NCBI GenBank assembly: GCA_001662655.1 | Contig: KV460275.1 | Origin: Pseudogymnoascus verrucosus | Taxonomy: Eukaryota | DNA: 64,000 nucleotides | Reading direction: 5' to 3' (one strand) | In this document: positions 13,798 to 44,152 of the stretch, one piece after another | Position numbering within the stretch: the first letter of the stretch is position 1 | Layout of the letters: every line of letters begins with the position of its first letter | Notes under the pieces: generated by a model | The model's database searches: none | Seen by the model: only the letters and a program-made list of their open reading frames with translations | Told to the model about the DNA's origin: nothing | Program-made: the position numbers and the translations under genes

Positions 13798-14945
13798 ACT
13801 GACTGACTGAGGGTGATTGGGCAATGGAGTCGACTGGATGCTGGTTGTGTCTAAGCGATCAACGGTACTGGGTACGGCCGAAAGATAGCACGTCTAGAGC
13901 ATACAAGACCATGCAGAGGATGAAGACGTTGGAGAGAGTCACGGCTATGAGGATATAGGGATTGAGGGAGAGGGTAGAGAGGGAATACATGAAGAGAAGA
14001 GAACGGAGAGGAGGGAGAGAAGAGTAGGGGAAGTGAAGAAAAGTAGAGATAACCAGGATAACGAGCGTAGCGGCTGGTGCCTATGGGAATGGGGAAAAGA
14101 GGGGGGATGTGCGGGATCAATGGGGATGGTACATGGGTGGTAAGCACGAAATGCTGCGCCGCAGAAGTAGATCCCCAGTGCTTTCCGAATGGTCAAAATT
14201 GCCAAAAATGGCCAAACAAGGAAGTCGTCGCGTGGGTGTGGAGAGTTGCTATTTCTGGTCTTTCTGCCCACTGGGCTCCACGCGGCCTAGGCGGTCTAGG
14301 CTATTTTGGGTCGCCGGGTGGCGGTGAGTGGCGCTTGTCGTTTTGAGCGTTTAGCGTTTAGCGACTATTGGTTTTTAGAGGGTTTTAGGGATATTTAGGG
14401 TGGAGATAGCTTCGGGATCAAGGCAAAACAAGCTCCTCAGCAGCTCCCTTGACCCCAGCTCCCTTAATGATCCTCGTTCGTACCGTCTAAGCTCGACTAG
14501 CTTCTTTTTCCTTTCAACATATCAATTTCTCAACTTCTCCTTGTGAAACCGTCGATAACCGTTGAACCCTTAACCCTCATTCCTTTTCACCAACAGCCCT
14601 TCTCTTTCCTTCATATTGATACATATGCTACTGTGCTTCGGACATCTATTACTATATTTTCCACTTATTTACCGTGCATACCTTCCTTCCTTCGAGACAG
14701 GGGTCCCATCATACGCCAAGCGTATCCCCCCATAGCTAATGCGGGGTGGTCAGGGCACTACTGTTGGCCGTGAGAGTCACCGGAAACTCTATTTCTAAAT
14801 CTAAACTATAAGTTCGGGCCCACCCTCGATGCTTTATAGACTCGTTAATTCGTGAGCTATTCATCTCCCTACACTCGAGGTTCTAGGAGAAGCTCTGTTT
14901 TCCCGTCCAAATATTGAATTTCGCGTTGACGCGGAGCTCTAAAAC

Positions 14946-17900
14946 ATGGCACCGGCCAACATTGAAGCCTCCCTTCAGCCAGGGCTCATCCTCCGCATGA
15001 GCCCGGCTGACTTTGCCTCCCACCTTTGCGGCCTTGTTGCGAGTGCTCCCGCTGATCAAGGTGACGCAACTGTCGCTGCGATCACGAGCCAATTGCAATC
15101 CCATGTGCACAGCAACGCCATCCCGCCCATACTCTTTTCCATATGGCTTCCCATGGCCCTGGCCCATCTGCCTCAACTACTTGGGGATGTACTCGGCGAC
15201 AAGGAGTCAAGCGGCATGCGGAAAGCTGGTACGAGACAGTTGCGTCGAATACGCAGGGGCCGGAACTGGTCCGAGAACGAGTGGAAGGCCCTTGGAGGGA
15301 TTGAAGGCGTCCGGAGCCTCTTCAATAATTTATCTGTGTCAGATGTCCGTCCGCTGGTTATGGCCATTTCTGTGGGTGCGAGAACCAGAGGGGCCGCCGG
15401 AGACGAGGCAGTGGACCATATTCTGGAGGCTCTTACAGGTGGGAGTAGCGAGGTGCAGCGACTTGAGTTGAACGACATTGCGAGTCTACTTGTGTCATGC
15501 AGCACTCCCTTTGTTACTAAGTGGCTGTCGAAGGAGCCCCTGCCATCGTTCCCTCTACGTGCCCTGTTTAAATGGCTTGTGGGAAGCCGACCAGATCTAG
15601 CACGGAACATCGCGACAGGCGCCGCGAAGGTTCATCCTGAGGTCAGATCTTCCTTGGTGACGAACCCCCCAGCCGGACTTATTTGGTCGCCTGCGCCATA
15701 TAAACCAAAATACACCACTGTCGAATTATCACCAAAATCACCCCCAGGGATGCGTTTCTGTTTCGACTTGTTACATTCGTTGCGAACAGAACCGATGTCT
15801 AAAACGGGCCCTTCTGCGGAAGATATCCTCAAGTTTGTACAAATTGCCGAAAATCAGGCTATACGGCATAAGACGCCATTTGACGATATACTGTCGTTAG
15901 TCCAAGTCGGCTTGGACGTGGCTGAGCTCCAGGTTGAAAAACTAAAACTTAAACTGACTGATCCACGCCTGGTGGCATTAATATACTATTGGTCTATGGC
16001 GAAATACCCCGATTACATCCCGGATTGCTCCATCAATCACAAGAAGGGCCCTCTGTCAGCGGCATCGCATCCATCGCGGCCAAACGCCAAGCACCAGGCG
16101 GACCTAGAAACGCTCATTGTGCATATCATAAAGTCAGCTATCCCATATAGCAACGTGTATTACATGATATATGAACTCTTTGAACTACTGCCAAAGAAGT
16201 CGTTTGCGCCCTCTGCAGGACTGCCATTGCTAAAGCTTTTATATTGCCATATACCGACTGTACGGGTTGACTTGGACAGCCCGCACTTGATTGATGAAGA
16301 ATGGCGACGCATTGACTTAGATGCCGCTATTTTGACCAAGCTTCCCTCCAGCGACTCCAAATGGCTTTTTGGCCGACGACCCAATTTGCTAGACGCGGGG
16401 AGTTTGATCACATTCTACCAGAGAGGTTCGCCTTGGACAAGTGTAGATACCGATACACCCTGGTGGTTCAAGCACGGCCTGCTAAAGATTATGTGGGAAG
16501 TCGAAGACGCCCAGCCGAGAAGTGGCTTCTACGAGACTCTCAAATTTCTTGAAAAGGTTAAGACAGAAGCCGAAAAAAGCCGAGATCCAGATATCAGAGC
16601 GAGTTGGGCCCTCAGAGCCGCTGAGGTGGCTGTAAGTAGCAATAGTGTTGCCATCATGAGGGACGTGACAGTCTGGTCTAGACGTTATCAACGCGACCAT
16701 AACGTCTACCCTGTTATCACTGAGAAACTACAACACTGGTCGGCTGGCGATGTCCTATCATGTGTAACGCTTCCTCCGAACCGACGACCAGCATCTCTTT
16801 CAGAGCTCAAGGCTCTTGTTGACGAAGCAAACTCGATTCTCTCACTTCATATTGAAGCAGCCGTTCAATACCTCAGGGAGCCTAGTTTCATACCCAGCAT
16901 GTTTATCAGCTTGGACAGATTGTTACGCGAAGTTTTAGACACGCGAATAGATGGGGTGCAGACCCTCCGGAAACTAGGCTTGGGAAGCAAAAGCGAGCTT
17001 GTGTCGATTCTGATCGAATCAATGATGCCAGTATTATTGCTCTACGAAGAAACGTCCTTGGTCGATGGGAACGGACCATTGCGTTGGGATACTCCGAATG
17101 GCCCTCTACGAACGGAACCAATTTTTAGCCCTCGCCGCTTATTTGCTCTGCCGTTTCTTGACAACTTAGCCAAACGCAGAGACGAGTTATGGGCCCAGGC
17201 ACGCCTAAAGCGGAACGATCTTGTTGCAACTCTCGACAAAGGCTGGCCCAGAGGGTTGCCAATCCAATATCTGTTTCCTGAGGACCAGTGGATGGTACAG
17301 GCCCTTGCAAATCCTGAAGCAGCACCATTCGTAGCGGAGAGAGTGAGAAACGTCATATTCTGCGATGCTGAAACTGCTCTGGTACCAATCCCCCACAACA
17401 CGGAAGCCATTGGTTTGTTTGTCGACAAGCTGGATGTTGCAATACGGTCGTATGTTGGCAGCGGGTCGTCGGCTGGGGCGTTAGGACGGATTGAACGCGT
17501 CTGGGAGCACTACTCTCACGTCGTTCCTGCGGCTGCTGGGCACATTCAGTTTGTAAAATCGGTCTTAAAGGATATTGCTTCATCAGGTGGAATAGAGTGG
17601 TTGAAGGACGACGTCGTGTCTCCCCTGCCACCGTCCTTGCCTGTCTCCGAAAACAACTTCGAGGTTGACCTGGAGCCGACGGAGTGGGACCCTCGGCCCA
17701 ATGGTGGCGGCCGTGACGACAAGATTACCAAAAATAACAAAGTAGACGAAAAACCCCAAAACCTACTCCTATCTCGAGTTTCGGCTACCAAAAGTGTGCA
17801 CTACCGGTGTTCATGGTACCAGCAAGAATTCAGTAAACCAGTACACTCAACTCTGACAAAGTCAGTTGACTCAGAGCCAGGTTTCTGGAGGACATGGATC

Positions 17901-20048
17901 AAGGAGATCCATAAACTACCAATGTCGAGCAGAGATGCCCTCGTGGCATCAGCTATGTTGTATCTTGATGCATTCGTGGCTGGAAATAGTCGTCTTCTTT
18001 CCAACCAATTTCCTGCTGGTGCATTCCATCCTCGATATCCACCAATGTACCTAGACTACGAATTTCTCTCCAGTGCTGGAAAATCAAGCAACACCGAAGT
18101 GTACGTCAAGGATGCTATTATTGCTCTTCGGAAACTGAAATCGATTGTTCCACCACTGTTATTAAGAGACTTGGCAAATTCGATGCTCAACAAGCTTGTC
18201 GATATGGGGAATGATGAACATAATCATCAGCTCGAATCCGCTACGTTTAAAATTATCTCACTTCTTTCGCACTCGGATCAACCTCACCTTGCCTCTGATC
18301 TAGGCCTTAAGGTAATTGAGAAGATGCCGGATTCTTCATCATGGCACCGGAGGGTTATTTCCGTAGGACTGTGCAAGAGATTAACTTCTACGCAAGTCGA
18401 AGACATGCTGCATAAGTTTTCCCACTACATCGTCGATTCACTCAAGGGGCAGCATGCAGGCCATGAAACCGAGAACGTGGAATATAGCCAAGACCATCCT
18501 AAGCGCAAATACGCAAAAGTAACAACCATAAAATTACTGGCGGAGTTGCTTGAAAACGGAGATTTAGTCTCGAACAAGATCTCTCTGGATATCCTTCGGT
18601 CTCTATTTGTTACAAGCAATCACATCGACGTGAAGGTCGCAGCCCTCAGTGCAATTAGAGAACTACTTGGAAAAAGTGTTCGTTTGGGCCTTGAGCCAGA
18701 CCTCAGGGCCTACAAAACTTTCACTTCGTTTGCTTACGCGGCAACTGGCCCCGACGAGAGATCAGTTGTTTCAGAAGCCGAATGGCTAGCTGCGGAAAAT
18801 GGAGGCCCTCTTCCCAACTGCGACAAGAAACGGCCCCTCCTCGAGCTTTTTCTTTGGGCAAAGAGTAGAATACCCGACAAGTTCCATGAAGATTACGTGA
18901 GCAGTGTCTTGTTGAAGATTCTTGATGAATCTACGAGGCAGCATACTCGTTGGATGCGGATATTTCTTGGAAGGTTTAATCTGTCAGCTAAAGAGGCATC
19001 TTTCGCTTCCTTCGGCCCCTTCGAACAAATTTTTCATTCCCACCCCCCCGGCGTTGAGAACTATGCGGACAAATTGCTGTTAGAGTGGCCGGAGTACATT
19101 TCAAAAGATTATCTCCTTCTAAACCGGGAATTGTCATTGTCACTGGGGTACCGCGACTGCGAAAAACATGCACATATTAATAAAAAGATAACTGCCGAAG
19201 ACCCGACATTATGGGAGACGAATGCTGGTGATCATTGGAGACACTACCTCGAGACTCATACGGAGTACAGAAGTGCATTTGAACCTCTTGGCCGGCTCAT
19301 GCGACAAAATATACAACCTCGTGTCCCAGACGGGATAACCCTCGAAGATGTGGAAGAAGAATACTTTCAACGCGTTGCAATCGCAGCTAGGGACCCCCGT
19401 TGTTACAAAGACAGAGATTCCATTGTGTCCCTGGAGCCATTTGAATACGCGATTAGCCTATTGGTATCCCCTGGTGACTCGAGGCACAATTTAATTAGCA
19501 TATTAGTATCTTATGGTGACACGGGGAACATGGTAGAAAGCAAACGCCGACTTTTGGAAAGAATCGTTACTGACGTTCGGGATCTGCATACCAAAATCAG
19601 GCCGGACGAATCATCGGAGAGGCCTCCGCTTCTCCCTTCCCTGTGGAATCTCCGCTGTAAGCTCGCTATGACCTCTCCATTGATAGAGTTGGTAGAGCGC
19701 GTCAACTCTCTGTGCGAAGAATGTGCTCAATCATCATTTGCTATGGGCCAGTACCAGCAACTTGTCAACGCTGTTAGCACCATTCCGTCCGACAGCAAGA
19801 CCTTCCTCTTAGTCAAGCTAGGAGTGGCGGCACAGAATCAGCACGATACTTTTGCGGGGTGTATCAAGGCGCAATTGGTGCATCACCTTCTTCAGGGGAC
19901 CAAAACTATAACTGCACCGGATATGCGTATGGAGGTTCAAGCGCTGTTGGCGTCGTGGTTGGATAGCACGAATGATAATATCCGCAGGCTTGCTTTTGGC
20001 CAGGCGGAAAGGTTTTCTAAAGTCAAAGCAAAAATCACTTTGGCGTGA
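14946..20048 (+). CDS. Large intronless hypothetical protein (1700 aa, Leu-rich, probably alpha-helical)
   Basis: Uninterrupted 5.1-kb ORF with AAAACATGG start context. No catalytic motif recognised. Confidence 0.85.
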   Translation: MAPANIEASLQPGLILRMSPADFASHLCGLVASAPADQGDATVAAITSQLQSHVHSNAIPPILFSIWLPMALAHLPQLLGDVLGDKESSGMRKAGTRQLRRIRRGRNWSENEWKALGGIEGVRSLFNNLSVSDVRPLVMAISVGARTRGAAGDEAVDHILEALTGGSSEVQRLELNDIASLLVSCSTPFVTKWLSKEPLPSFPLRALFKWLVGSRPDLARNIATGAAKVHPEVRSSLVTNPPAGLIWSPAPYKPKYTTVELSPKSPPGMRFCFDLLHSLRTEPMSKTGPSAEDILKFVQIAENQAIRHKTPFDDILSLVQVGLDVAELQVEKLKLKLTDPRLVALIYYWSMAKYPDYIPDCSINHKKGPLSAASHPSRPNAKHQADLETLIVHIIKSAIPYSNVYYMIYELFELLPKKSFAPSAGLPLLKLLYCHIPTVRVDLDSPHLIDEEWRRIDLDAAILTKLPSSDSKWLFGRRPNLLDAGSLITFYQRGSPWTSVDTDTPWWFKHGLLKIMWEVEDAQPRSGFYETLKFLEKVKTEAEKSRDPDIRASWALRAAEVAVSSNSVAIMRDVTVWSRRYQRDHNVYPVITEKLQHWSAGDVLSCVTLPPNRRPASLSELKALVDEANSILSLHIEAAVQYLREPSFIPSMFISLDRLLREVLDTRIDGVQTLRKLGLGSKSELVSILIESMMPVLLLYEETSLVDGNGPLRWDTPNGPLRTEPIFSPRRLFALPFLDNLAKRRDELWAQARLKRNDLVATLDKGWPRGLPIQYLFPEDQWMVQALANPEAAPFVAERVRNVIFCDAETALVPIPHNTEAIGLFVDKLDVAIRSYVGSGSSAGALGRIERVWEHYSHVVPAAAGHIQFVKSVLKDIASSGGIEWLKDDVVSPLPPSLPVSENNFEVDLEPTEWDPRPNGGGRDDKITKNNKVDEKPQNLLLSRVSATKSVHYRCSWYQQEFSKPVHSTLTKSVDSEPGFWRTWIKEIHKLPMSSRDALVASAMLYLDAFVAGNSRLLSNQFPAGAFHPRYPPMYLDYEFLSSAGKSSNTEVYVKDAIIALRKLKSIVPPLLLRDLANSMLNKLVDMGNDEHNHQLESATFKIISLLSHSDQPHLASDLGLKVIEKMPDSSSWHRRVISVGLCKRLTSTQVEDMLHKFSHYIVDSLKGQHAGHETENVEYSQDHPKRKYAKVTTIKLLAELLENGDLVSNKISLDILRSLFVTSNHIDVKVAALSAIRELLGKSVRLGLEPDLRAYKTFTSFAYAATGPDERSVVSEAEWLAAENGGPLPNCDKKRPLLELFLWAKSRIPDKFHEDYVSSVLLKILDESTRQHTRWMRIFLGRFNLSAKEASFASFGPFEQIFHSHPPGVENYADKLLLEWPEYISKDYLLLNRELSLSLGYRDCEKHAHINKKITAEDPTLWETNAGDHWRHYLETHTEYRSAFEPLGRLMRQNIQPRVPDGITLEDVEEEYFQRVAIAARDPRCYKDRDSIVSLEPFEYAISLLVSPGDSRHNLISILVSYGDTGNMVESKRRLLERIVTDVRDLHTKIRPDESSERPPLLPSLWNLRCKLAMTSPLIELVERVNSLCEECAQSSFAMGQYQQLVNAVSTIPSDSKTFLLVKLGVAAQNQHDTFAGCIKAQLVHHLLQGTKTITAPDMRMEVQALLASWLDSTNDNIRRLAFGQAERFSKVKAKITLA

Positions 20049-26652: not shown

Positions 26653-27976
26653 ATGGCAACAACGACCACCACCATACAGGAGTCGACAGGTGAGAGTATC
26701 GGGAAGATAGCCGTAGCTTTTGATGAGAAGGTACATGAAGGAGTAAGTGGCCTTACATAAGATTCCTCAATTCACCGTCGGCTGACATATCATCCCACTA
26801 CACAGTCGAGGTACACAGCATACCTCCCTGTCTATGACAACGAGACCAAGTTTCCGCCTACCCAGCCGTTTGAATTCCGCGATCGCGGGTTGGATGCTGA
26901 CCCTGCCAAACCAAATCTGTTGAAAACAGGTGATCCAAACATCGAGGTCACTAGGCTCACACCTCGAATCGGCACTGAGATTAAGGGGCTACAGCTGTCG
27001 CGATTGAATGACGCCCAAAAGGACGAACTCGCCCTCTTGATTGCAGAACGTGGCGTGGTTGTATTCCGTGACCAAGATTTTAAGGATATTGGTCCAGAGA
27101 AGCAAAAGGAATTTGGCCAGTCATTCGGACCTCTACATGTCCATGTTAGTTTTCCCATATCTAGTCTAATATTGGCTTGCTAATCGGATTAACGCAGCCC
27201 GTTGGTGCACATGTTGAGAATCATATTGAATTTCACAGCATTTATCTCGGGTCTGATAACCTCTATCGTGCTCAACAACGCTCGAGCAAGTTAACAACTA
27301 CGGGATATCACTCTGATGTTTCATATGAGCACCAGACCCCAGCAATTACAATCCTGACACTCCTCGAGGTTCCATCCACTGGGGGGGACACGGGATGGGC
27401 TTCACAGGTGGTGGCATATGAGAGACTATCAGAGCCCATTAAAGTATTGCTAGAGGGCTTGCGTGCTGAGCATAGTGGCCATGAGCAAGCTGCAGGAGCC
27501 ATACGTGACGGGAAAACCGTGCGGAGAGAGCCCGTAAAATCTCAACATCCGATCGTCAGAGTTCACCCCGTAAGTTCCATTAATATTCCAAATGTATCCA
27601 GTTGGAAACTAACTCGTATTCAGGTCACCAGACAAAAGGCGCTCTTCGTCAACCCAGGCTTTACCAGGCGCATCGTAGGCTTGAAGGATGAGGAATCGGA
27701 CGCCTTGCTGAAGCTTTTATTCAAGGTATTTTGTGCAGCACCAGCAAATCATTAATACTGACACTACTGTAGCATATCTCGCAAGGTCAAGATTTCCAAG
27801 TCCGTGTGAGATGGGATGACAGGACGGTTTCTCTCTGGGACAATCGAGTGACCGCTCACACTGCGATCTCAGATTACGACGTTCATAACCCCGAGGAAGG
27901 CTTGCGCCATGGGTTTCGAATTACAACCCTTGGAGAGAAGCCAGTGGGCGTCAATGGATTGGAGTCTACGTGGTAG
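26653..27976 (+). CDS. TauD/TfdA family Fe(II)/2-oxoglutarate dioxygenase (Jlp1-like sulfonate dioxygenase); about 4 introns
   Basis: Motifs LTPRIGTEI.G, ERGVVVFRDQ, HSDVSYE (HxD), GGDT.W, HPIVRVHP, LFVNPGF, WDNRVTAH. Short introns near 26730-26805, 27146-27198, 27570-27623 and 27726-27772. Confidence 0.92.
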
Positions 27977-28450: not shown

Positions 28451-31069
28451 ATGGCGACGATTCAAGAAGCCCGAGGCTCTGTAAGCCTTATCGGTGAGGC
28501 TATTGATATTTTGGCTACTAGCGCAATCCCGGACTTGAAGCGTAAAGTACGGGACTTTCAAATCCAAACAACCCCGTTTCATATCACACTCGTCACGAAA
28601 GATGAGAAACGCAATCTTTCGCCCGCTGCTCTTGCATCTCTAGTTAAGTTTACTGCAGCTAGCGCCTCAGAAATTGGAATCTTTCACCACCTGGGCACTG
28701 CTTGTATAAAAAGGGGCGGCAGCGATGTTGCATTTATCGTCGTTATCTGGGTGTCCGGACAGCAGATTCGGAAACGTTTGGGTCTACCACACAAGGATTT
28801 CCACATTACCCTATCCGCTAATGATAATCACAATATTGATAAAAGTATCGCCTGTCTACGTGTGGGGGAATTTGATGTTCAAAATGCGTCATTGGAATGC
28901 CTGGACCATCTTACATTTACTCTCCATAATGCGGGGCGATATCTCGACGCAAAAGCGTACTCGCAAGAGATTCTATTAAGGGACCCTGAATCATCAAAGG
29001 GATGGCTTCGATTAGCAGATGCGGCTCTCCAACTGGGAGAATTTAAAGTTTCCATGTTGGCATACGCGCAAGCTTGGAAAGCAAGTGAGAACGACAAAAT
29101 GAGTGCGTATACCGTGAAAATGTTACATAAATGCTCTACGGATACCGAATGGGGACACTTGCTGCAAGAAGAAGAATTGACCCAGCTTGAGAGCGTCTCA
29201 AAACAAATAAGACAGCGTTTGTTGACGCCTTGGCCGAATAATCTGCGTGAGTCCATCGCAGATATGGGGGTTCCTCCTTCGCTGTGTCTCGAGCCGCGTC
29301 GGCATCTTTCCATACCAGACAGCATTGGAGTGTTTTCTCTCCCTCGTTTTTTTCGATGGCTTGTGCCTTTCAAAATCGCAGTTATGTCAACGCCACGCAA
29401 CGGACGAGACATCCGGGCATTAAGCTCTGACGGCATTGGAATTAAAACTGTTCTTACTCTTACGGAGGAAGAACCACTGGATCAATCATGGTTTAATACG
29501 AGGATTAAGAATGTATTCCTTCCGATTCGAAATTACTATCCTCCTTCGATTGAGCAGATGGATATCGCCATGCGTATTTTGACAGACGAAGAGAGCCTTC
29601 CAGTTCTGATCCACTGCGGTGGGGGGAAAGGCCGTGCAGGTTCAATCGCCGCCTGCTACATGGCAGCCTGTGGCTTTACTAAGCCAAATCTACAATCCGA
29701 CGACTGGCAACCAGCAATGTCAGCGCAAGATTCGATTTCAAAGCTCCGTGCTATCCGACCTGGGAGCATAGAAACCGAACAGCAAGAGGTCTTCATATCG
29801 AAATGGGTGAGCGTGCTCTGGAAACGACAATCCCTCTTCCCCACCGCAGTCCCTGAGCCACCAGCCTGTCCACTCGATATCACGGGGCAGCTCGACGGCT
29901 CCGTTGATTTCCTCATGCTCGTCGGTATTCCCGGCTCAGGAAAATCATGGGTGGCGAAGTCACTGCTTGCCCGTGACCCACGCTGGACCTACGTCTCACA
30001 AGATGAGTCGAGTCGCTCCGCCTGCGAAACAGCTGTCAGTCGCACAAAAGGGAAACTCATACTCGACCGGTGCAACACGAGTGCCGCGGACCGGAAATTC
30101 TGGCTTCAGCTTGCAGATGCCAAAAACGCGGTGTGCGTACTCTTCGACTACGATACTGAGTTATGCGTGTCGCGCGCCCAACAGCGGGCTGACCACCCCA
30201 CTCTTCCTCCAGGGTCAAGGGTGCTAAATGCGGTGAAGCAGATGACGGAACAGTTTTCTGCGCCAGAGTTTAAAGAGGGGTTTAAGGCAGTGCTCACCGT
30301 GAAGTCCTTTGCGGCGTCTGATGATTTAATCTCTCAACTCTCGCCTACTATTGGACTCCTGAAATTCCCTCGCACAGCCCATCTTATCGACCTTGGTGCC
30401 ATTGGTTCAGATGATATTCTACTCCCCTCTGCGCCTGCACTCTCACCTGGATGCACTGTGGTGATCACAGAAAAAGTCGACGGCGCGAATATGGGATTTA
30501 GCTTGTCTTCAGATCGGCAATTGTTGGTACAGAACAGATCTCATTTTGTGAACTCCAGCTCGCATAGCCAGTTCAAGAAACTCGATTCATGGATGGCAAG
30601 ACATAGGGAGGAATTATTTGGATTATTGAACCAAGACAAGTACTTCCCGCAGCGGTATATTTTATATGGGGAGTGGATGCATGCTGTGCACTCAGTCTCG
30701 TATAATTCTCTGCCTGACAGATTTTTGGCATTCGATCTGTTTGATCGCGGGGAAGGCAAGTTTGTAAACAGAGAGACTTTGGAAACTCTGTTGAGCGGAA
30801 CTGAAATTCATATCACGAGAGTTATGGAAAAGAGGGATACAATACCGACAGATATTGAATTGAGAGCATTGGTACAGAGGCAGTCAGCATTCGCAGAAGG
30901 TAGGGTAGAAGGCGTGGTAGTAAAGATTGAAGATAAGAACTGGGTAAAGTGGAGAGGAAAGGTTGTGCGGGGCGATTTTCTGGCAGGTAACCAGCACTGG
31001 AGCAAGAACATCATGCAAGAAAACGGGATTTTGGTCACCAATATGGAGGAATTAGACATTGCGTCCTGA
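28451..31069 (+). CDS. Multidomain RNA end-healing/sealing protein: 2H phosphoesterase + TPR + DSP/PTP-type phosphatase + P-loop polynucleotide kinase + ATP-dependent RNA ligase ('Swiss-army-knife' type)
   Basis: Intronless, 872 aa. Two HITL motifs (28580, 28802). TPR-like helices (KGWLRLADAALQLGEFKVSMLAY). HCGGGKGR CX5R loop (29612) and RPGSIET. GIPGSGKS Walker A (29924) with ILDRCN. Ligase motifs TEKVDG (Lys at 30473), YGEW, AFDLFD, EGVVVK, GKVV. Confidence 0.9.
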   Translation: MATIQEARGSVSLIGEAIDILATSAIPDLKRKVRDFQIQTTPFHITLVTKDEKRNLSPAALASLVKFTAASASEIGIFHHLGTACIKRGGSDVAFIVVIWVSGQQIRKRLGLPHKDFHITLSANDNHNIDKSIACLRVGEFDVQNASLECLDHLTFTLHNAGRYLDAKAYSQEILLRDPESSKGWLRLADAALQLGEFKVSMLAYAQAWKASENDKMSAYTVKMLHKCSTDTEWGHLLQEEELTQLESVSKQIRQRLLTPWPNNLRESIADMGVPPSLCLEPRRHLSIPDSIGVFSLPRFFRWLVPFKIAVMSTPRNGRDIRALSSDGIGIKTVLTLTEEEPLDQSWFNTRIKNVFLPIRNYYPPSIEQMDIAMRILTDEESLPVLIHCGGGKGRAGSIAACYMAACGFTKPNLQSDDWQPAMSAQDSISKLRAIRPGSIETEQQEVFISKWVSVLWKRQSLFPTAVPEPPACPLDITGQLDGSVDFLMLVGIPGSGKSWVAKSLLARDPRWTYVSQDESSRSACETAVSRTKGKLILDRCNTSAADRKFWLQLADAKNAVCVLFDYDTELCVSRAQQRADHPTLPPGSRVLNAVKQMTEQFSAPEFKEGFKAVLTVKSFAASDDLISQLSPTIGLLKFPRTAHLIDLGAIGSDDILLPSAPALSPGCTVVITEKVDGANMGFSLSSDRQLLVQNRSHFVNSSSHSQFKKLDSWMARHREELFGLLNQDKYFPQRYILYGEWMHAVHSVSYNSLPDRFLAFDLFDRGEGKFVNRETLETLLSGTEIHITRVMEKRDTIPTDIELRALVQRQSAFAEGRVEGVVVKIEDKNWVKWRGKVVRGDFLAGNQHWSKNIMQENGILVTNMEELDIAS

Positions 31070-31114
31070 GACTGATCTTTACAACTTTCTCCCATCTCTA
31101 GCGATAAACCTGGT

Positions 31115-31657
31115 TCACTTCGCTCCCTGTTGCGCCTGAAGCTTTTTCATCTGCGCGCCGACTGCCTCGCGATACTCTTCATCAATGACGACCAGTCCGG
31201 CTGCTCCTTCCTTGTTGACAATCTCGTCCATCTTCTCGGTACTCAGCATAAGCGTGGCGATGATGACGGCCTCCTCCGTCTCCGAGGCGTTATCGCTGAT
31301 GCGGTGTCTGCAGCCAGGAGCCTCGTAGAAGCTATCGCCAGCATTCTTAATTGTCATGGGATCATCGTTCATCTTGTTTAGGACAGATCCGGTCAACACG
31401 TGAACTGCAACGAATGCGCCTGCATGGGTATGAGGTGGCGTGGACCCTCCTGGGGGGAAAGTGACTTTGAGTGCCAGCACGGAATTGCCTGGGGCGCTGA
31501 GGACTTTATAGTGGTATAGGACTTCGAGAGCTGGGAATGGGCGTCTGTCATGTGTCAGTAGCTTGTTTGTCGAACCCCAAGGGACTTGTGAGATAGAGGT
31601 ATCTCACGTTGCATCATATACTGGCTCCTCCCTGTTTGCGACCTTGGAGAACACCAT
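31115..31657 (-). CDS. Cupin-domain protein; intron about 31607-31545
   Basis: Two-motif cupin: FPPGGSTPPHTH and GDSFYEAPGCRH. The upstream exon MVFSKVANREEPVY splices via GTGAGA..CTGAC..CAG. Confidence 0.85.
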
Positions 31658-36564: not shown

Positions 36565-39500
36565 TTACGTCCTCCTATCCCCCGACTTCCTTGTCGTGTA
36601 GCTGCGTCTCATACTCGCACCCCACGCACTGTCATTAAACGCCTCCACGGCCATCTCCCCCGCCGTACTGCCACTGCGACTGTGCATCCCCTCCCTCCTT
36701 GCGGGAACCACATCGCTCAGATCCATCGTTGCGCCACTAACCGAGCTATTCGTCCGATGCGGCCGCAATCTGGGGCTGCGACTCGGACTGCTCGCCCCGC
36801 TGCCCAGTCCGCTGATGGCCCCACGACTGCCACGACTATCAACGCTACCGTCGCGTGAATGCAGCCCGCCCATCCCCATGCCACCGATCATATCGCGCAG
36901 GCTGGCGTGTCTGTCTGAGAAATCCACTGTCGCGCGCATCGAGCGGCGGGTGTCGTCGGGGTCGGCGGATAGGGCCACGGAGCGAGCGTCGGCGTCGTCG
37001 CCCTCAACGAAGATCTCGGGTACTGGGAAGGTTGAGATCTCGGTGATGCGCGAGAGTGAGTGGCGATTGAGGTGACGCCGGAAGCGGCGAGCCCAATACA
37101 TCGTATCGAAGAAGCCGATGACGACGCGGCGGTGGACTTCCTCTTCGACGCGCTGGAGGCGGGCGCGACGGCGGAGGAACTCGTCAAGTCTGTAGTTCTG
37201 TTAGCTATTTGTAGAAAGAACAAGTGGGGTTAGGGTATGACTTACTTCAAGCTCTTGTTGTCGCTGATGATGTTGTAATGCGCGAGGATCATGAGCACAC
37301 TCGTGAACGAAATACCCAGCTCCGGATCTGCGGAGACCATCACCTCCTCGTAGAAGATATTGTACAAGTGCCTCCGCTCCCTCACCTTCTGCCCATCAAT
37401 CCGTGCGATCCGATCGTTGAGCTTCTTGAGATCAATTCCCATGGCACCACTCACAGTCGCCACGGACGTCGTCCTCGACCCCATCGGCTGGGCCCGCACA
37501 TCCTCTAGGATACGAAGTACAGAGTCTTCCTCATCATAAATACGCATGGCAAAGATTCCCGACAGCTCGCCGAGCAAGCGTGGAAATTCTTCTTTGGTGA
37601 TATACCCTGTTCCATCCGGATCGAACGTTGCCCACGCCTGCTTGAAGCGGCGCGTCTCCTCGCGGTTGACAATCTCGTGCCCGCTCGACCGTTGGTACAC
37701 GTACGAGAAACTCTCGTAGATGAGCGACACGAACAGCGACACGAAGATGTACATGCTTAGGATGTTCCACGAAATGAACAGTGCGTACGCCCATGACGAG
37801 CTGCCGCAGTCGCTATCGAAAAAGGTCGACTCCTCCACGCACAGCGGCGGCCGCGTGTTCGCGTAGTCCATCATGATCTGATTCCAGCCCTCGCCGACGG
37901 ACATGCGGAAGAGCACGATAAGCGCACGCGGCACGTCGCGAAAGTTTAGGTTGTTGGTGCCTTGACTGCCGAAGCGCGTGAGCCCGAAGGTCTGGGTCAT
38001 GGCAATGGCGTATACGAGGAAAAGGATAAGCCAGGTCGCGAGGAGATTGCCAATGGTGGTCAGCGACGCGGCGGCGGTTTTGAACAGCTGGTCCAACGCG
38101 TTGTTGCGTGGAATCAGGAGTAACGCGATGGAGACGAGGAAGATGTTGTGTAACTGATACAGCGTAACAGAATCTTGCTTCCCAAATAGCAAAATAGTCG
38201 TGGTCATTGTCCCCGTCACCGAGACTAAGGAATACAGATCCCACGAACTGCGCCTGAAACGCGGCCACGTGAGACCGACAATCCGAATAACGATGTTTGA
38301 CATGTATATGACAGTGAAGAAGAGGAAGAGGGCGTCTCTCGTACGCGTCCACCAGAATGGCTCGGGGTAGAACTCAAGCATCAACAATATCAGATGAAGT
38401 ACCAGTGTAATAGTGACCGTCCGGCTCCAGAACCCATGCTTCTGCACAGCCTTCTTATAGCACCAATCCTTCCACTTCGGCTTGCTTTTAGTCGACGGCC
38501 TCTTCGATGGGGCCACCTGCCGCAGCAGCTTCCGCAGTTCCATCCAGGACCGTTGCTCGGCCGTCAGGAACGCCACACCCGTCTGCTCCGTATACGTGCG
38601 CATGAAGACGGAGATGAACAGCGTCAGGACGAACACAGTTGCCATCAGGTTGAACACCACGAAGAACACCGCGTTGCCCTGCGATGCAAAGTCCCGCGGC
38701 TGCAGCCCACGGCCCACGATCGACTGCGCGCTCCACATCACGTCGGTCCAGCCTTCTTGCGAGACGATCTGGAAGAGGATGAAAAGCGAGCTGCCGAAGT
38801 TGTCAAAATCGTAGTAGGGGTTTGCCGGCACCCGCGGGGCGGGGAACGTCCACTCGCTGCTGAAGGGTGAGCTGTTGAATTCACCGGAGCAGTCCGAGAG
38901 ATTGATGATGCCGCTCCCGCCGTCATTGCAGACTTGCATTTGGCCGTTGAAGAGATTGACACCGTAGATGGCGAAGGGGATCAGCAGCGATAAGGAGACG
39001 AATATCGCAGAAAGAACCCGCCACCCTGCGACGAAGATGACGGAGTGAAACGTATCTCTGGCGCTGTCACTGATATGTAGTAAGCGCAGAGCTCTGAGCG
39101 CCTTGAACGCCCCAACTGCTCTCGATATAGCACCGTCATTCAAGAACGATGTAATCACATTGATCCACAGCGTAATCAGCACCCATCCATCAATGAAACC
39201 CCACAAACTGCGGAAATAAGCATTCGGCGTCCAGAAACAGCCATCGGCAATCATCTTAATGATAGCCTCGACGCTAAAAACTGCCGCGAACGCCATATCT
39301 GTCCACACGAACCAGTTCCGCAGCGCAAAATTATGTGTCTCAAAGTACTCTTTCTGGTACAATGGCGTTGTCACACACGCTAAAACCACCATCGTCAAGA
39401 TCGCCGCATAGATGAATGCCGAGAATGTGTACCACACGATCTTGTTTGGCTCCACGCCGTCGATGCGCTCTGCACCGCGCCCCGGACCCACAATTTTCTG

Positions 39501-42500
39501 GCAGAACCGCCGTATCGGGTTGTCCGGCTTGAACAGGAACATCGCCGTGTTGTAGCTTGGGTGGCGGTTGAGATAGTCGCGCTGGGCGCGCTTGCGTAGC
39601 GCAGTTGCTGACACGGCTTCGCGCGCCATAGTACGCGGGTCAAGGCCTTCGGCGGCATTGGTGAAGCGGATGCTCGAGTAGAATGGGTTGGGCTCGCGGT
39701 GCCAGACTTGCGCGACAAACTTGCCCCATAGCCCTGAGAGGGAGCCTGGGGCAATTTCAGGCGCGTTGTCAAAGGTGTGAGAGGTGTTTAGGCCTGGTTG
39801 GGGCTCGCCGCTCTCGTCGTCGAGGAAGTCGCGCACGACGGAAGCTTTGAGCAGCATTTCCATTGTGGACTGGCCATAGTCGAGCGGGTCTTTGGTCTTC
39901 TTGGTTTTGCCGAAGCGGAAGATGGTTGAGAGGGAGAGGTTGCTCGAGGAGCTGCTGACATCTTTCTTCTGTAGGAAGGCCTTGACCTGCTCGAGGCGCT
40001 TTTCGTCCTCGGACACGTCAAAATTCTCTTGAATGACAGCAATAAACATATTTATCAGAATGAAGTACGCCAGGATGAACCAGCCAATAATGAAACTTGC
40101 GCCCATCCACGCCGTATTGTGGTGATCGTTATACGTCTGCACATTGTACAGGATGCTCGTCCAGTTCTCACTCGACAGGATCTGGTACAGTCCCAGGAAC
40201 GCATTCCAGATCGAGAAAAAAGTCGTCCGCACCGTGTTTCCATCCGAATCGTACGCCGGTATATCGCCCCTGAACATCTGCACCGCCAAGATTGAAATCA
40301 GAAACGTAATCAGGAATACGAACAGCACCAGGTTCAGAATACCCGTCGCGTTACCCAACATCTTCTCGATAAGTTTTCGCGTGATGGGCACCGCCCAAAC
40401 AACACGGTAAACACGAAGGATCTGGAACACGGTGAGCCAAGCATATGGCTGCCCTGAGTTGCGGATCGGCGGTAAGAGGATGACGGTCGTGATAATGGCG
40501 AGAAGTGTGTCGAAGCCGTTTTTCCAACTGCGTGGGAACTTGCGGAAGTCACTAGCGAGGCGGAAGAAGATCTCGATGTCGAGCGCGAAGGTCACCATGA
40601 TCTCAGCCACGAAGATAAAGTTCGCGCGCCTTGCGGACATGGTCGCACTGCGGCAGGCTTGGCTCACTATGCCGAACATGATGACGAGGATCCAGAACCA
40701 GAAGGATCGGGTGTAGATCTTCTTGAGAACGGTGGTGCGGCTGCGGGGCTTGACCTCCTCGACAACGGCGACGGGGGTGTTGATCATTGTGAAGGCGCTG
40801 CGCTTGCTCTCCTCTCTGATGACTTGGAAGGAGGACGTGATGACGGCGATGAGCAAATTAGTGAGCCACAGCAACATGATAACGATTCCGGCTGCGAAGA
40901 ATAGCGCCGCGGCCAGGTAATCAGAATCCGTGGTGTAATACATCAAATCCGTGAACGTATTTGCGCTCATGATAACGAAGACAAGCTCCAACGAGTTTAC
41001 AATGTTGTCGAAGCTGACTGTTCCATTATAAAGCGATTCGCCTTCAATACAGAGGGAGCCTCGAGGACAAAGATAACCCTTGCTCGCGCGCGCACCACTC
41101 GTCCCATTCTCGTAGGTCCAAGGAAGTGCGACCCCCGATATATTATCAAGGTGCCCACCACAGAGCTGGAAATCGCTTGTGTAATTCGACTGCCCCTCCG
41201 GATCAACCCATGTACACGTTCGACTGAAACTTGACTTGAACGCCTGGACGCCCACGATGGCAAAGAGCAGCCAGAAGAAGCCGATAAGAAAGGACACGTT
41301 GACCAGCAACGGAGCAGCTTTCTTCAAGCTCTTGAGGATGATGGCCGTACCATTTGTCAGCCACAGCAGTCGGAGGATTCGCAGGCAGCTAATCATCTTG
41401 AAGAGGTAGAGATGCTTACGCGTCTCCACCCCCGTGATTCCGATCGCGAAGGATATCCAAAACGCGACAACCGCAACGATATCGATTCTGTTCAGCGAGT
41501 GGCGGAAAAACGCTCGCCGCGCGAGCTGGTACCGCTGCTGCTCCTCAATTGTAGTGGGATATGCCACTGGGGTTTTCATCGCTGTTGTAAACGTCCGACT
41601 GATGGCTTCCGAGATAGGGGGCGCATCAAGGTGCCTCGGCACTCTGACGGACTGCTGCCGCCGCGGCCCAAAGAACGTCATATACTTGGACATGAATGTA
41701 GTCTTAAGCCCCTGGTTGACATCCTTGCGCGTACTGTACTCCTCGGCGTTGAAGAAGAATCCCGAGACGATGATCTTGGCGGTAATCTCCAGCGTGTAAA
41801 TTCCAAACAATGCCAGCATTGCGTAGTCCATAGGCGAGCCGCTCCAAGTGTTCGGCATCGGGTTCGTGAACGAGTCCTTGCTCGATTCCACCGCCAGCAG
41901 AACCGTCTGCAGGATGATCAGTATTAGTATTATTGGCTCCGTCCACGGGTGCACTAGGAATTCGCAGAGGCGCATCCGTATGTAGTTGTCTGGCGCGAAG
42001 ATACGCAAGCTGTTCCCCCGTAGAGGATTCGTAATCGGCCATGGCGGCGCTGCCGGCTCCTCGGGCAGTTCTGCTGTTGGCGTGGATGGGACCTTCTCGA
42101 TGGGCAATTGTTGCATCTCAGGGCCGTAATCCATATTCTCCTCGTCCGTGACAAGTATAGGCGGAAGCCCGGAATTAGGCAGCGTTTCATCTGCTGAATC
42201 CTTCCTTCGATATGCCGGCTCAGGCAGCTCGGCATCATTACTGAAATTAACCACTCGCTGTGACATAGCGCGCATCATGGATCCTGCCCTTGTCAACGGC
42301 CCTGCGCCCGACGGCGACGGCGACGGCGACAGGCGCCGCGAATCTGGACTCAGACTCTTCCCAAAGCTGCGTGACCGCTCCCGCCCTCCACTCCGCCCGT
42401 TCGGTGACGACCCCAGGTTATCACCCAGCCGCGACTGGCGCGATGTCTGTGGGGAGTCGAAGCGCACGCTCTGGAAACTGGTGCGGTCCCGGTCCGATGA

Positions 42501-43058
42501 CTGTCGCGGCGTCGAGGGGTTCGGCGCACCGCTGATGGGCGCAAGGTAATTCGAGTCCGTCAGCCCGACCTGATCCGAGTCGGTCGTTGTATTAAAATAC
42601 CCATCCCCCATATCCCCGTATGGCTGCTGCGTACCATAAGGCGAGTTGCCCACATCTCCCCGTCCATAACTCGGGCCATATGGGTCCGGACTCCGCGGCG
42701 ACAACGGTTGGCTACTCGGCGGCATGCTCAGCCCGACGACAGCCATCTGGAAGGCATGCGAGTTCTCCACCGGCGAGCCGCCCGACAGCTCGTCCTCCAC
42801 GCTCGGTTGCATGTGCTGCCCGGTTGGGAGCAGCACTCGCAGTGTCGGGCTCGGCGAGCTGTCGTCTAAGCGCGAGTACCGTACTGCTGGGCCTCGCATC
42901 GCTGCATTGCCAGTCATGAGGCTGCGGCCACGGGTGTGTCCCCTGTGCTCACCCTCGCTGGGGCCAGCGTCAGTGTCGGGGGGGCGGGAGAGGTTCTGGA
43001 GGGGTATCGATTGCGGCGGGGACTGGGAGTGCCGCGGGGAGGGGTTGTTGGATGCCAT
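36565..43058 (-). CDS. CCH1: Cch1, four-domain calcium channel alpha subunit; exons 43058-37246 and 37189-36565
   Basis: Four 6-TM repeats with S4-like segments (CLRILRLL, ILRVYRVV, KALRALRLL). Pore loops SANTF, SSENW, SQEGW, VGEGW give the fungal N-N-E-E filter. EF-hand DPDGTGYITKEE. Intron 37245-37190 (GTAAGT..CTAAC..CAG). Confidence 0.97.
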
Positions 43059-44152
43059 TGCGTTGGCGCGCTGGCGGTTGAGGTTGAGGAGAGGAGGTGA
43101 GTGAGGTTCGGAAGTTGGTGGTTCCTGGGGAGACGTATGCGCGACGAGGGCATACGAGGTGTTGGTCTCCTTATCGATTGGAGCTCATGATGGCGACGCG
43201 ACAGAGGGAGAGGGGAGTATTCGCCGTGTCCAGAGAGTTGGTACGGTAATCAACCGTTTAAATCGCAGATTGGATGTTCGTGAGGGTCGTTGAAAGTGTC
43301 GTGGTCGTTGATGGCAATGGCAGCTCTGGGGGCGTGTTTGAGGTTTTGCTGAAGGGATGGGTTTTGGGAGTTTTGGGGTTATGCGGTTCAGCTTTCGCGA
43401 CACGCTTACTCTACGCTTACGCTAAATCGATTTCTGGAACAAGAGCGGCGCAGCGCAACAGCCAACGAGCCACGGGGAAAACGGCCAGGGGGGGGGGAGG
43501 ATGGGGGTCTGACGTACACCTGGTCCTGCGCTAAAAATATAAAAATAGAAAACAGATTTTGGGTATTTATTGTTGTTATTGTTGCAAATGGGGATGAAAG
43601 GTCAACAGAGGGTATAAATAATTCAATTAATTGCTACAATTTAATACAGTGATTGTATACGACTAGAATTAAATGTATAATTAAATACAAATGATTATTG
43701 ATTATTATTATCGAAAAAACATCATTTTTCATGTGCGCGCGCGTCTTTAATTAGTCCTTTTAATTACTGGCTATTTCCGGCTTGGCCGGAAGAAGCTATA
43801 CGAGAACGTGCATAGGGAGGGTAAAGGCGATAGTGTCGACAACTTCATTTCCAGATTTCAGTATCCTACATTCTGAACTTCTAGAGAGAGTATTAAGATA
43901 ATTATAACAGCCTAGAATGATTGATGAGCAAGTCACTGTGAACACTTCCCACCTCTCCAGACCCGGGTAGCCCGGGCCCCCTTAAAACCCCAGACTTCAA
44001 GATAATACACGTTATTCATTACTTTTCGGCGTCTATCGAATCTCTGATCATCTACGTATATCGTACATCCTCATTCCATCGCTTCCGTTCCCCATCATAA
44101 ACTTCCAACACCCTTCCTCCATATCAAATTCATATCATCGACGTCTGACCCC

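Follow-up and report, generated by a model that had tools for sequence, protein, structure and literature searches.

The 64,000-nucleotide (nt) stretch of contig KV460275.1 from the ascomycete Pseudogymnoascus verrucosus (assembly GCA_001662655.1; hereafter “the window”) harbours an intronless open reading frame (ORF) coding for a multidomain protein of 872 amino acids (aa). Sequence comparison assigns the ORF, which is intact, to the “Swiss Army Knife” (SAK) family, which combines a 2H phosphoesterase, tetratricopeptide (TPR)-like repeats, a cysteine phosphatase, a polynucleotide kinase and an RNA ligase in a single polypeptide. This copy is an ordinary orthologue within a named and widespread family, and its architecture is therefore not a discovery of the present work.

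The Swiss Army Knife open reading frame

The frame lies on the plus strand, starts with an ATG at position 28451, ends with a TGA at position 31069 and comprises 872 codons with 0 internal stops (Table 1). Homologues of 847-898 aa align with the protein end to end and cover 98-100% of the query, and hence, the gene is considered complete and, as a first-pass annotation made from the letters of the sequence had proposed, intronless. The Pseudogymnoascus orthologues comprise 869-874 aa and share the N-terminus MATIQE. A frame length far beyond chance, together with a curated Pfam match at E 9e-56, indicates that the observation is real. Every motif quoted in the first-pass annotation was located at the implied position: the paired HxT motifs of the 2H part in FHITLV (43-48) and FHITLS (117-122), HCGGGKGR (388-395) in the phosphatase, GIPGSGKS (492-499) and DRCN (539-542) in the kinase, and EKVDG (674-678), YGEW (739-742), LAFDLFD (759-765), EGVVVK (820-825) and RGKVVR (835-840) in the ligase. 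The accompanying statement that all motifs are intact holds as well, the catalytic residues being invariant in 24-31 diverse homologues.

Pfam describes the models PF22547 and PF22784 as “Swiss Army Knife” 2H phosphoesterase and DSP-PTPase (dual-specificity/protein tyrosine phosphatase) domains, respectively. These names identify the architecture as that of an already named family and corroborate the earlier remark that such fusions have been predicted as “Swiss-army-knife” proteins. SAK proteins were reportedly first described, along with their architecture and predicted role, by Burroughs and Aravind in Nucleic Acids Research in 2016. An exhaustive, profile-free search yielded 3812 cluster representatives with E<=0.001, of which 526 pass E<=1e-30 (clusters at 50% identity), and the family ranges from fungi to a moss, protists and giant viruses.

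Across 24 of 24 full-length sequences with 49-92% identity, the invariant positions comprise H118 of the 2H domain, the complete HCGGGKGR loop of the phosphatase, the P-loop glycines from G492 onwards with K498, D518 and D539-R540-C541 of the kinase, as well as E674-K675-D677-G678, G740-E741-W742, E820-G821 and K837 of the ligase. The order of the domains was determined with Pfam for 30 longer or oddly matching family representatives. The order found in the window, 2H-TPR-PTP-KIN-LIG (PTP, phosphatase; KIN, kinase; LIG, ligase), occurs in 16 of the 30, followed by 2H-LIG-PTP-KIN in six (P0205, P0210, P0220, P0232, P0234, P0246), LIG-PTP-KIN with no 2H match in four (P0215, P0233, P0247, P0254), PTP-KIN-LIG-2H in two (P0208, P0259), and 2H-LIG-KIN-PTP (P0248) and KIN-LIG only (P0229) in one each; some members with a permuted order feature two ligase stretches. 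The same set of domains is thus kept while its order is permuted, which is good evidence that the domains act in one pathway. Three basidiomycete gene models of 1224-1335 aa (P0016, P0101, P0118) combine the SAK architecture with a pfkB carbohydrate-kinase domain (PF00294), which could represent a real fusion or a merger of neighbouring gene models.

Table 1. Features of the SAK open reading frame and of neighbouring genes (nucleotide positions in the window; residue numbers refer to the 872-aa protein)
Feature	Position	Strand	Basis or remark
SAK-family multidomain protein ORF (P0001), predicted RNA repair protein, complete, intronless	28451..31069	+	872 aa plus stop
2H phosphoesterase domain, residues 14-127	28490..28831	+	Pfam PF22547 2H-SAK
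HxT motif 1, H44-T46	28580-28588	+	within 2H domain
HxT motif 2, H118-T120	28802-28810	+	within 2H domain
TPR-like helical repeats, residues 148-228, then linker to residue 297	28892..29134	+	Pfam TPR and model helices
Cysteine (DSP/PTP-type) phosphatase domain, residues 298-449	29342..29797	+	Pfam PF22784 PTP-SAK
Asn361 at general-acid position	29531-29533	+	alignment to Asp of 25xa
P-loop HCGGGKGR, residues 388-395	29612-29635	+	HCx5R loop, invariant
P-loop polynucleotide 5'-OH kinase domain, residues 487-620	29909..30310	+	RazKIN/PNKP matches, Pfam AAA_33
Kinase motifs: P-loop GIPGSGKS 492-499, D518, DRCN 539-542, lid R575/R579	within 29909..30310	+	all invariant
ATP-dependent RNA ligase nucleotidyltransferase domain, residues 636-850	30356..31000	+	Pfam PF09414, AF2 model
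Ligase motifs: KFPRTAHL 638-645; I K675 (EKVDG); III E741; IIIa FD 761-762; IV E820; V K837	within 30356..31000	+	sequence
1701-aa open frame	14943-20048	+	no Pfam match at E<=0.001
TauD/TfdA-family dioxygenase	26761-27755 (frames 26761-27183, 27165-27755)	+	split over two frames
Cupin gene	31115-31603	-	3' flank of SAK ORF
1980-aa open frame, four-repeat Ion_trans protein with EF-hand	37242-43184	-	Pfam

Catalytic domains and helical repeats

The N-terminal 2H domain is recognized by the 2H-SAK model at E 1.1e-18 and with 68.1 bits against a gathering cut-off of 27. H44 and H118 of the two HxT motifs are invariant in 31 of 31 sequences, down to an identity of 21% in the N-terminal region, T46 and T120 are conserved in at least 90% of the sequences, and H44 is conserved in at least 90% of the 24-sequence set. 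An AlphaFold2 (AF2) model of residues 1-290 with a predicted local distance difference test score (pLDDT) of 91.9 is composed of two strand-strand-helix-strand units, each with an HxT motif on its last strand, and of five subsequent TPR-type helices; the Pfam TPR model matches residues 150-220 under its gathering score. The TPR repeats probably dock a partner or an RNA-protein substrate. A language-model look-up with residues 1-140, which is to be taken as a lead only, placed on top a cluster (score 0.94, 191 shared features) with the domain PF08302 (tRNA_lig_CPD) in 63% of its members, and a PHROGs search with the same residues matched no family.

Fold matches of the 1-290 model in BFVD, a database of predicted viral structures, include a 649-aa protein of Bodo saltans virus (E 9e-10), an 859-aa protein of Terrestrivirus (E 1.5e-8) and a 161-aa phage protein termed “Swiss Army Knife 2H phosphoesterase” (E 8.4e-6, target-normalized TM-score 0.60), as well as weak matches (E 0.02-0.05) to a 2'-5' RNA ligase superfamily (LigT-like) protein, two cyclic phosphodiesterases and Acb1. 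Accordingly, relatives of the SAK N-terminal part are encoded by Bodo saltans virus, Terrestrivirus and a tailed phage, and through these matches the family reaches into viruses.

The phosphatase domain matches the PTP-SAK model over all 153 model positions (E 9.4e-56, 188.5 bits against a cut-off of 27). In the Protein Data Bank (PDB), it is related to the solved DUSP-like structure 25xa (1.4e-12) and to DUSP23 (1.3e-10). The HCGGGKGR loop occurs in exactly this form in 201 of 259 compared proteins with an HCx5R loop.

The kinase domain is covered by the Pfam model AAA_33 (residues about 487-604, E 1.6e-11, 45.1 bits, above the gathering score), and by the NCBIfam model TIGR01663 (PNK-3'Pase) at 1.5e-12, far under the cut-off of that model. 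Its nearest solved relative is the kinase RazKIN from Rhizopus azygosporus (PDB 9d8a; E 8.1e-18 over 128 residues), followed by the kinase domain of mammalian PNKP (1.3e-5). RazKIN and the SAK kinase have in common a GSGKS P-loop, QD(D/E), DRCN and a lid of the form R..R.DHPT, where D518 is aligned with the QDD of RazKIN and the RD of PNKP, and R575/R579 with the lid arginines of RazKIN. The alignment stops at RazKIN residue 142, before the G-loop residue Ser146; S619 of the SAK protein is invariant and lies a few residues past this end, yet is not matched to Ser146 by the alignment. For RazKIN and its Mucor orthologue, a GTP-dependent 5'-OH polynucleotide kinase activity is proven; both can carry out the kinase step of yeast tRNA splicing, and RazKIN phosphorylates RNA as well as DNA 5'-OH ends (PMC11571804).

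The C-terminal domain is recognized by the Pfam model RNA_ligase (residues 670-834, E 3.3e-31, 109.2 bits, above the gathering score) and by the PHROG “RNA ligase” family phrog_548 (4.4e-17). A PDB search with the single ligase-domain sequence gave no match. A profile made of residues 630-872 and 22 short or stand-alone relatives retrieved NgrRnl of Naegleria gruberi as the first match (E 7.4e-6) with motifs I, III, IIIa and IV aligned, then the archaeal Pab1020-type RNA ligases 2vug and 5d1o plus 8uce and 3qwu (labelled “DNA ligase” there), and weakly TbREL1 (E 0.19). NCBIfam models run on the ligase domain and five stand-alone relatives produced a sole, weak match (TIGR01209, E 0.0046, for P0363).

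An AF2 model of the ligase built from the same alignment (mean pLDDT 86.5) was compared to the PDB with Foldseek. Ranks 1-13 are all occupied by NgrRnl chains (best E 3.9e-8, query-normalized TM-score (TMq) 0.58), and the other matches listed up to rank 38 are, apart from 8uce and 3qwu, TbREL1, Trl1-LIG (E 1.2e-5), archaeal Rnl3-type ligases, T4 Rnl1 and T4 Rnl2. The label of 8uce varies between “ATP dependent DNA ligase” in the profile search and “Thermophilic RNA Ligase from Palaeococcus pacificus” in Foldseek, and 3qwu, also within the top 38, is labelled “putative ATP-dependent DNA ligase”; both cluster with archaeal RNA ligases in the profile search. The best-placed clear DNA ligase stands at rank 41, and the E values of this group are 2.8e-3 or weaker. 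The SAK ligase is marked by a conserved leader, K(F/Y)PRTxHL, and by a tail of the form HW..N; K675, E741, FD 761-762, E820 and K837 are invariant or nearly so, and after motif V only about 30 residues follow, an OB domain being absent. From the sequence and the model we conclude that the domain is a minimal RNA-ligase nucleotidyltransferase, which forms a clade of its own; its closest neighbour is the NgrRnl family, to which it does not belong.

Taken together, the identities of the domains, the intact conserved catalytic residues, the RNA-ligase fold and the linkage of the four domains are supported by the present data, and four of the five domain assignments of the first-pass annotation were confirmed by independent tools. 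This pertains to the TPR-like linker, by virtue of the five modelled helices and the sub-threshold Pfam match; the CX5R phosphatase (188 bits to PTP-SAK, DUSP23-like PDB matches at 1e-10 to 1e-12); the PNK-type kinase (RazKIN 8e-18, mammalian PNKP 1e-5); and the ATP-dependent RNA ligase (109 bits to PF09414, top fold match NgrRnl at E 4e-8). Two claims stand in part. The 2H assignment is backed by the Pfam score (68 bits against 27) and the presence of both HxT motifs, while the fold comparison gave weak matches to other 2H families; and the phosphatase said to remove the leftover phosphate is a Cys-phosphatase with an intact HCx5R loop, while the removal step itself is the least secure, the general-acid aspartate being replaced by Asn361.

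Distribution and genomic context

The closest homologues of the window protein (85-92% identity) stem from named Pseudogymnoascus species, which belong to the Leotiomycetes within the Ascomycota. They are followed by one homologue at 69% and others at about 50% identity, the named ones of which derive from mushroom-forming basidiomycetes. Organism names were available for 9 of 20 sampled representatives and comprise Penicillium taxi, Kockovaella, a Microbotryomycete, Rhodosporidiobolus, Flagelloscypha, Serendipita, the blastoclad Sorochytrium, the moss Ceratodon purpureus and a marine protist transcriptome. Stand-alone relatives of the ligase domain are found in Phytophthora and a diatom.

A quick maximum likelihood tree of 40 rows (LG+G4, SH-aLRT support only; two long branches flagged, five rows of odd composition) places the Pseudogymnoascus clade beside Agaricomycetes, in a joint clade with Serendipita (support 94). 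Penicillium taxi groups with Microbotryomycetes and the moss with a tremellomycete (support 100 each). Forcing the two ascomycete lineages together was rejected (log-likelihood (lnL) difference 120, approximately unbiased test (p-AU) 2e-8), a result weakened by the fact that the group was named after the tree had been seen. These placements and the rejected ascomycete grouping put the gene tree in conflict with the species tree. Horizontal transfer would fit this conflict, as would ancient paralogy combined with loss, and the tree indicates neither a direction nor a donor. A nesting of Pseudogymnoascus inside the Agaricomycetes was not established: holding the 13 named Agaricomycetes together costs merely 3.5 lnL units (p-AU 0.415).

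The bat white-nose fungus P. destructans features only a 128-aa gene model (VC83_07354, P0341), which is located on a 799-kb contig and shares 90% identity with residues 598-712 of the window protein (nt 30242-30586). At otherwise invariant or near-invariant positions this model harbours the changes K638N, H698Q and G682A. Judged from these sequences, the SAK gene may have decayed in P. destructans.

Expression data were drawn from eight listed runs, two of them recorded as RNA, each with <=6% of the sampled words, and contigs from four runs were placed on the window. Two of the five placed contigs lie inside the ORF (29645-29795, 151 nt, X6; 30333-30547, 215 nt, X1), and the other three cover the last bases of the ORF and its 3' flank, at the neighbouring cupin gene. 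At 31038-31300, contigs from four RNA or possibly-RNA libraries reach a depth of up to 83, far above the depth in the SAK ORF.

Regarding the other genes in the window, the two TauD/TfdA frames upstream probably constitute one gene with a short intron, and the 1980-aa Ion_trans protein resembles a Cch1-type calcium channel.

A predicted RNA repair pathway and its relation to known systems

Metal-independent ribonucleases cut RNA in such a way that a 2',3'-cyclic phosphate (2',3'>p) and a 5'-hydroxyl (5'-OH) end are left. On the strength of its sequence and modelled folds, the SAK polypeptide probably heals and seals RNA cut by these enzymes on its own, and leaves no 2'-phosphate (2'-PO4) at the junction. 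The substrates, the order of the steps, the product of the 2H domain, the target of the phosphatase and the biological role, which might lie in the repair of tRNA or rRNA in inter-organism conflicts, are the parts of this proposal that we infer. Initially, the 2H domain (H44/T46, H118/T120) would open the cyclic phosphate to a monoester, most likely yielding 2'-PO4/3'-OH, as does the cyclic phosphodiesterase (CPD) of the Trl1 type, its closest likeness. 2H enzymes generally open the cyclic phosphate to a 2'-phosphate (PMC9503650). Subsequently, the Cys389 phosphatase would take off the monoester and leave a 2',3'-diol, and the P-loop kinase (K498, D518) would phosphorylate the 5'-OH. Finally, the ligase, adenylylated on K675, would join the 3'-OH to the 5'-PO4 and form an ordinary 3'-5' phosphodiester. 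Tpt1 would not be needed, as the junction would be devoid of a 2'-phosphate.

Several points weigh against this proposal. The canonical general-acid aspartate, which is expected about 30 residues upstream of the catalytic cysteine, is absent from the phosphatase, and N361 aligns to the Asp of 25xa. Asp-less Cys-phosphatases typically act on phosphoanhydrides, as RNA 5'-triphosphatases do, and not on alcohol monoesters. Phosphate removal is therefore the weakest step, and the preference for phosphoanhydrides leaves room for a phosphatase that acts on the 5' end, or on the junction once the ends are ligated. At the other end of the pathway, the ligase domain reaches none of the curated NCBIfam models for Rnl1, Rnl2, Rnl3 or Rnl5; given this and the TMq of 0.58 to NgrRnl, the end specificity of the ligase cannot be read from its relatives. 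For the 2H domain, no Pfam family of the 2H type other than 2H-SAK matches at E<=1, and PDB fold searches with the N-terminal model returned only TPR proteins; since the TPR part dominates these match lists, the 2H fold lacks independent confirmation against solved structures. Transcription of the ORF is neither shown nor excluded, the 151-nt and 215-nt contigs from RNA or possibly-RNA libraries being the only ones inside. Moreover, the neighbouring genes, which code for the TauD and cupin proteins, a zinc-type dehydrogenase, a Zn2Cys6 factor and the Ion_trans channel protein, are unrelated to RNA metabolism. Finally, no activity measurement for any SAK member was found in the full-text literature, where most subscription journals lie outside the coverage, in agreement with the first-pass annotation, which had called these proteins biochemically uncharacterized; apart from unrelated work, Mucorales papers and articles citing the 2016 review were retrieved.

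The replacement of the general acid opens up the most serious alternative, namely, that the same four-domain RNA repair enzyme employs its Cys-phosphatase for a purpose other than removing a 2'- or 3'-phosphate before ligation. The phosphatase might (a) trim a 5'-tri- or diphosphate to a 5'-monophosphate or remove a 5'-adenylate, and thus widen the range of ligatable 5' ends, or (b) remove the 2'-phosphate after a Trl1-like, 2'-PO4-dependent ligation, and thereby replace Tpt1. Asp-less Cys-phosphatases include the RNA 5'-triphosphatases baculovirus BVP, PIR1/DUSP11 and the metazoan capping enzyme, in line with Asn361. Moreover, the 2H domain lies nearest in feature space to the Trl1-type CPD, whose product goes to a ligase with a requirement for 2'-PO4 (PMC11571804). 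However, the best PDB relatives are DUSP23-type protein phosphatases, with no RNA triphosphatase among the matches listed, and of 252 SAK members, 207 have N, 44 D and one H at the position of the general acid, such that the family is not uniformly devoid of a general acid; those that retain the Asp are mainly the more distant ones, among them P0225 from a protist and P0128 from Penicillium taxi. Furthermore, the ligase is nearer to NgrRnl (3.9e-8) than to Trl1-LIG (1.2e-5), and the presence of a kinase fits 5'-OH rather than 5'-ppp ends. On balance, we regard this alternative as unlikely, albeit worth bearing in mind.

The remaining alternatives assign the protein to other pathways. Many homologues carry database names such as “ATP dependent DNA ligase” or “DNA ligase III”, the kinase matches the DNA repair enzyme mammalian PNKP at 1.3e-5, and RazKIN phosphorylates DNA besides RNA (PMC11571804), all of which would suit an enzyme for DNA-break repair, where a PNKP-like kinase and phosphatase are fused to a DNA ligase. 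Yet, a 2H cyclic phosphodiesterase would find no substrate in DNA, since a 2',3'-cyclic phosphate needs the 2'-OH of ribose. Moreover, RNA ligases lead the list of fold matches, in which no clear DNA ligase comes before rank 41, no OB domain occupies the roughly 30 residues that remain after motif V, and the matching phage family is annotated as RNA ligase. Given the 2H domain and the RNA ligases ranking first, a role in DNA repair appears very improbable. Similarly, the kinase is most like the Mucorales stand-alone kinase that complements yeast tRNA splicing, and the predicted chemistry would suit tRNA exon ends, as expected for a housekeeping ligase in the splicing of tRNA or in the unfolded protein response, which backs up or replaces Trl1/Tpt1. 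Such a function is at odds with a patchy distribution that conflicts with the species tree, with the 128-aa gene model of P. destructans, which argues for a dispensable gene, and with the description of Trl1 as essential and general in fungi (PMC11571804). The patchy distribution in particular renders a housekeeping function hardly probable. Finally, source names such as “atypical dual specificity phosphatase” and “tyrosine specific protein phosphatase”, along with TPR repeats that suggest protein binding, might point to a protein phosphatase or scaffold, the nucleic-acid domains of which are inactive relics; this is excluded in practice by the conservation of the catalytic residues, every one of which is invariant in all four domains at an overall identity of only about 50%.

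A four-domain enzyme that removes the phosphate before ligation hence remains the reading we favour. If it is correct, a single protein found in many fungi, and also in some plants, protists and giant viruses, can repair RNA and restore a clean 3'-5' bond without Tpt1. Next to Trl1/Tpt1 and RtcB, eukaryotes would thereby have a second means of countering toxins that cut tRNA and rRNA, and activity of the phosphatase on RNA 2'/3'-phosphate ends would be without known precedent among Cys-phosphatases. A more far-reaching scenario, which we consider doubtful, would hold that the gene came to an ancestor of Pseudogymnoascus by horizontal transfer from basidiomycetes, as a mobile form of immunity to toxins that cut RNA, that the Asn-bearing Cys-phosphatase performs a chemistry new to its superfamily, in which it takes a 2'-phosphate directly off RNA, be it ahead of ligation or from the ligated junction, that eukaryotes thus possess a full RNA re-joining route independent of Tpt1 and NAD, and that the gene has since decayed in the bat pathogen P. 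destructans. The SAK family is large, conserved and easy to express, and experiments could be guided by the Asn in place of the general acid, the separate clade of the minimal ligase, the relatedness of the kinase to the Mucorales splicing kinase and the domain permutations.

Among the known systems, Trl1/AtRNL together with Tpt1 deals with the same type of break (2',3'>p and 5'-OH) and likewise relies on a CPD of the 2H type, a 5'-OH kinase with a P-loop and a ligase that depends on ATP and has lysine as its nucleophile; the SAK kinase is related to the Trl1-type kinases through RazKIN. In contrast to the order 2H-TPR-PTP-KIN-LIG of the window protein, Trl1 is arranged as LIG-KIN-CPD and needs a 2'-PO4 at the end to be joined (PMC11571804). 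The window protein also differs from Trl1 by the additional Cys-phosphatase and TPR repeats, by a ligase that is nearer to NgrRnl than to Trl1-LIG and lacks the C-terminal domain, and by a predicted product without a junction 2'-PO4. The contrast that the first-pass annotation drew with Trl1 regarding domain order and 2'-phosphate matches the descriptions published by the Shuman laboratory (PMC11571804).

NgrRnl (PDB 5cot) is the best match to the SAK ligase in sequence profile as well as in fold, and motifs I, III, IIIa and IV of the two ligases align. NgrRnl represents the Rnl5 family (NgrRnl/DraRnl). The identity amounts to 16-18% at a TMq of 0.58, and only NgrRnl residues of about 150-318, i.e., the nucleotidyltransferase domain, are matched. 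The N-terminal domain of NgrRnl is without a counterpart in the SAK protein, where the kinase precedes the ligase instead, and the KFPRTxHL leader and HW..N tail are the SAK ligase's own.

The baculovirus Pnk/ligase is another single polypeptide that comprises kinase, phosphatase and ligase, and like the SAK protein it fuses healing and sealing in one chain and ligates 3'-OH/5'-PO4 ends. The same holds for bacterial Pnkp (with Hen1; PMC11571804). The phosphatases of both enzymes are of unrelated families, namely metallophosphoesterase or HAD, whereas the window protein features a 2H domain plus a Cys-phosphatase. With the model for bacterial Pnkp, TIGR04075, the window protein reaches 24.9 bits where 750 are required, and only the kinase part matches. 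The closest solved relatives of the SAK kinase are the RNA 5'-OH kinases of Mucorales (RazKIN 9d8a and a second chain, 9drz). In contrast to the SAK kinase, they are stand-alone proteins of about 170 aa that prefer GTP, and the alignment between the two ends before the G-loop Ser behind this preference.

The closest comparison is with the SAK family itself. The window protein is built from the domain families typical of its relatives, in the order that is most frequent among them (2H-TPR-PTP-kinase-RNA ligase), and is recognized by both SAK Pfam models far above their cut-offs. Among the matches listed, most family members belong to Agaricomycetes; the window copy is from an ascomycete and carries Asn361, as do most fungal members. 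Hundreds of full-length homologues exist, and nothing essential differs in the copy of P. verrucosus.

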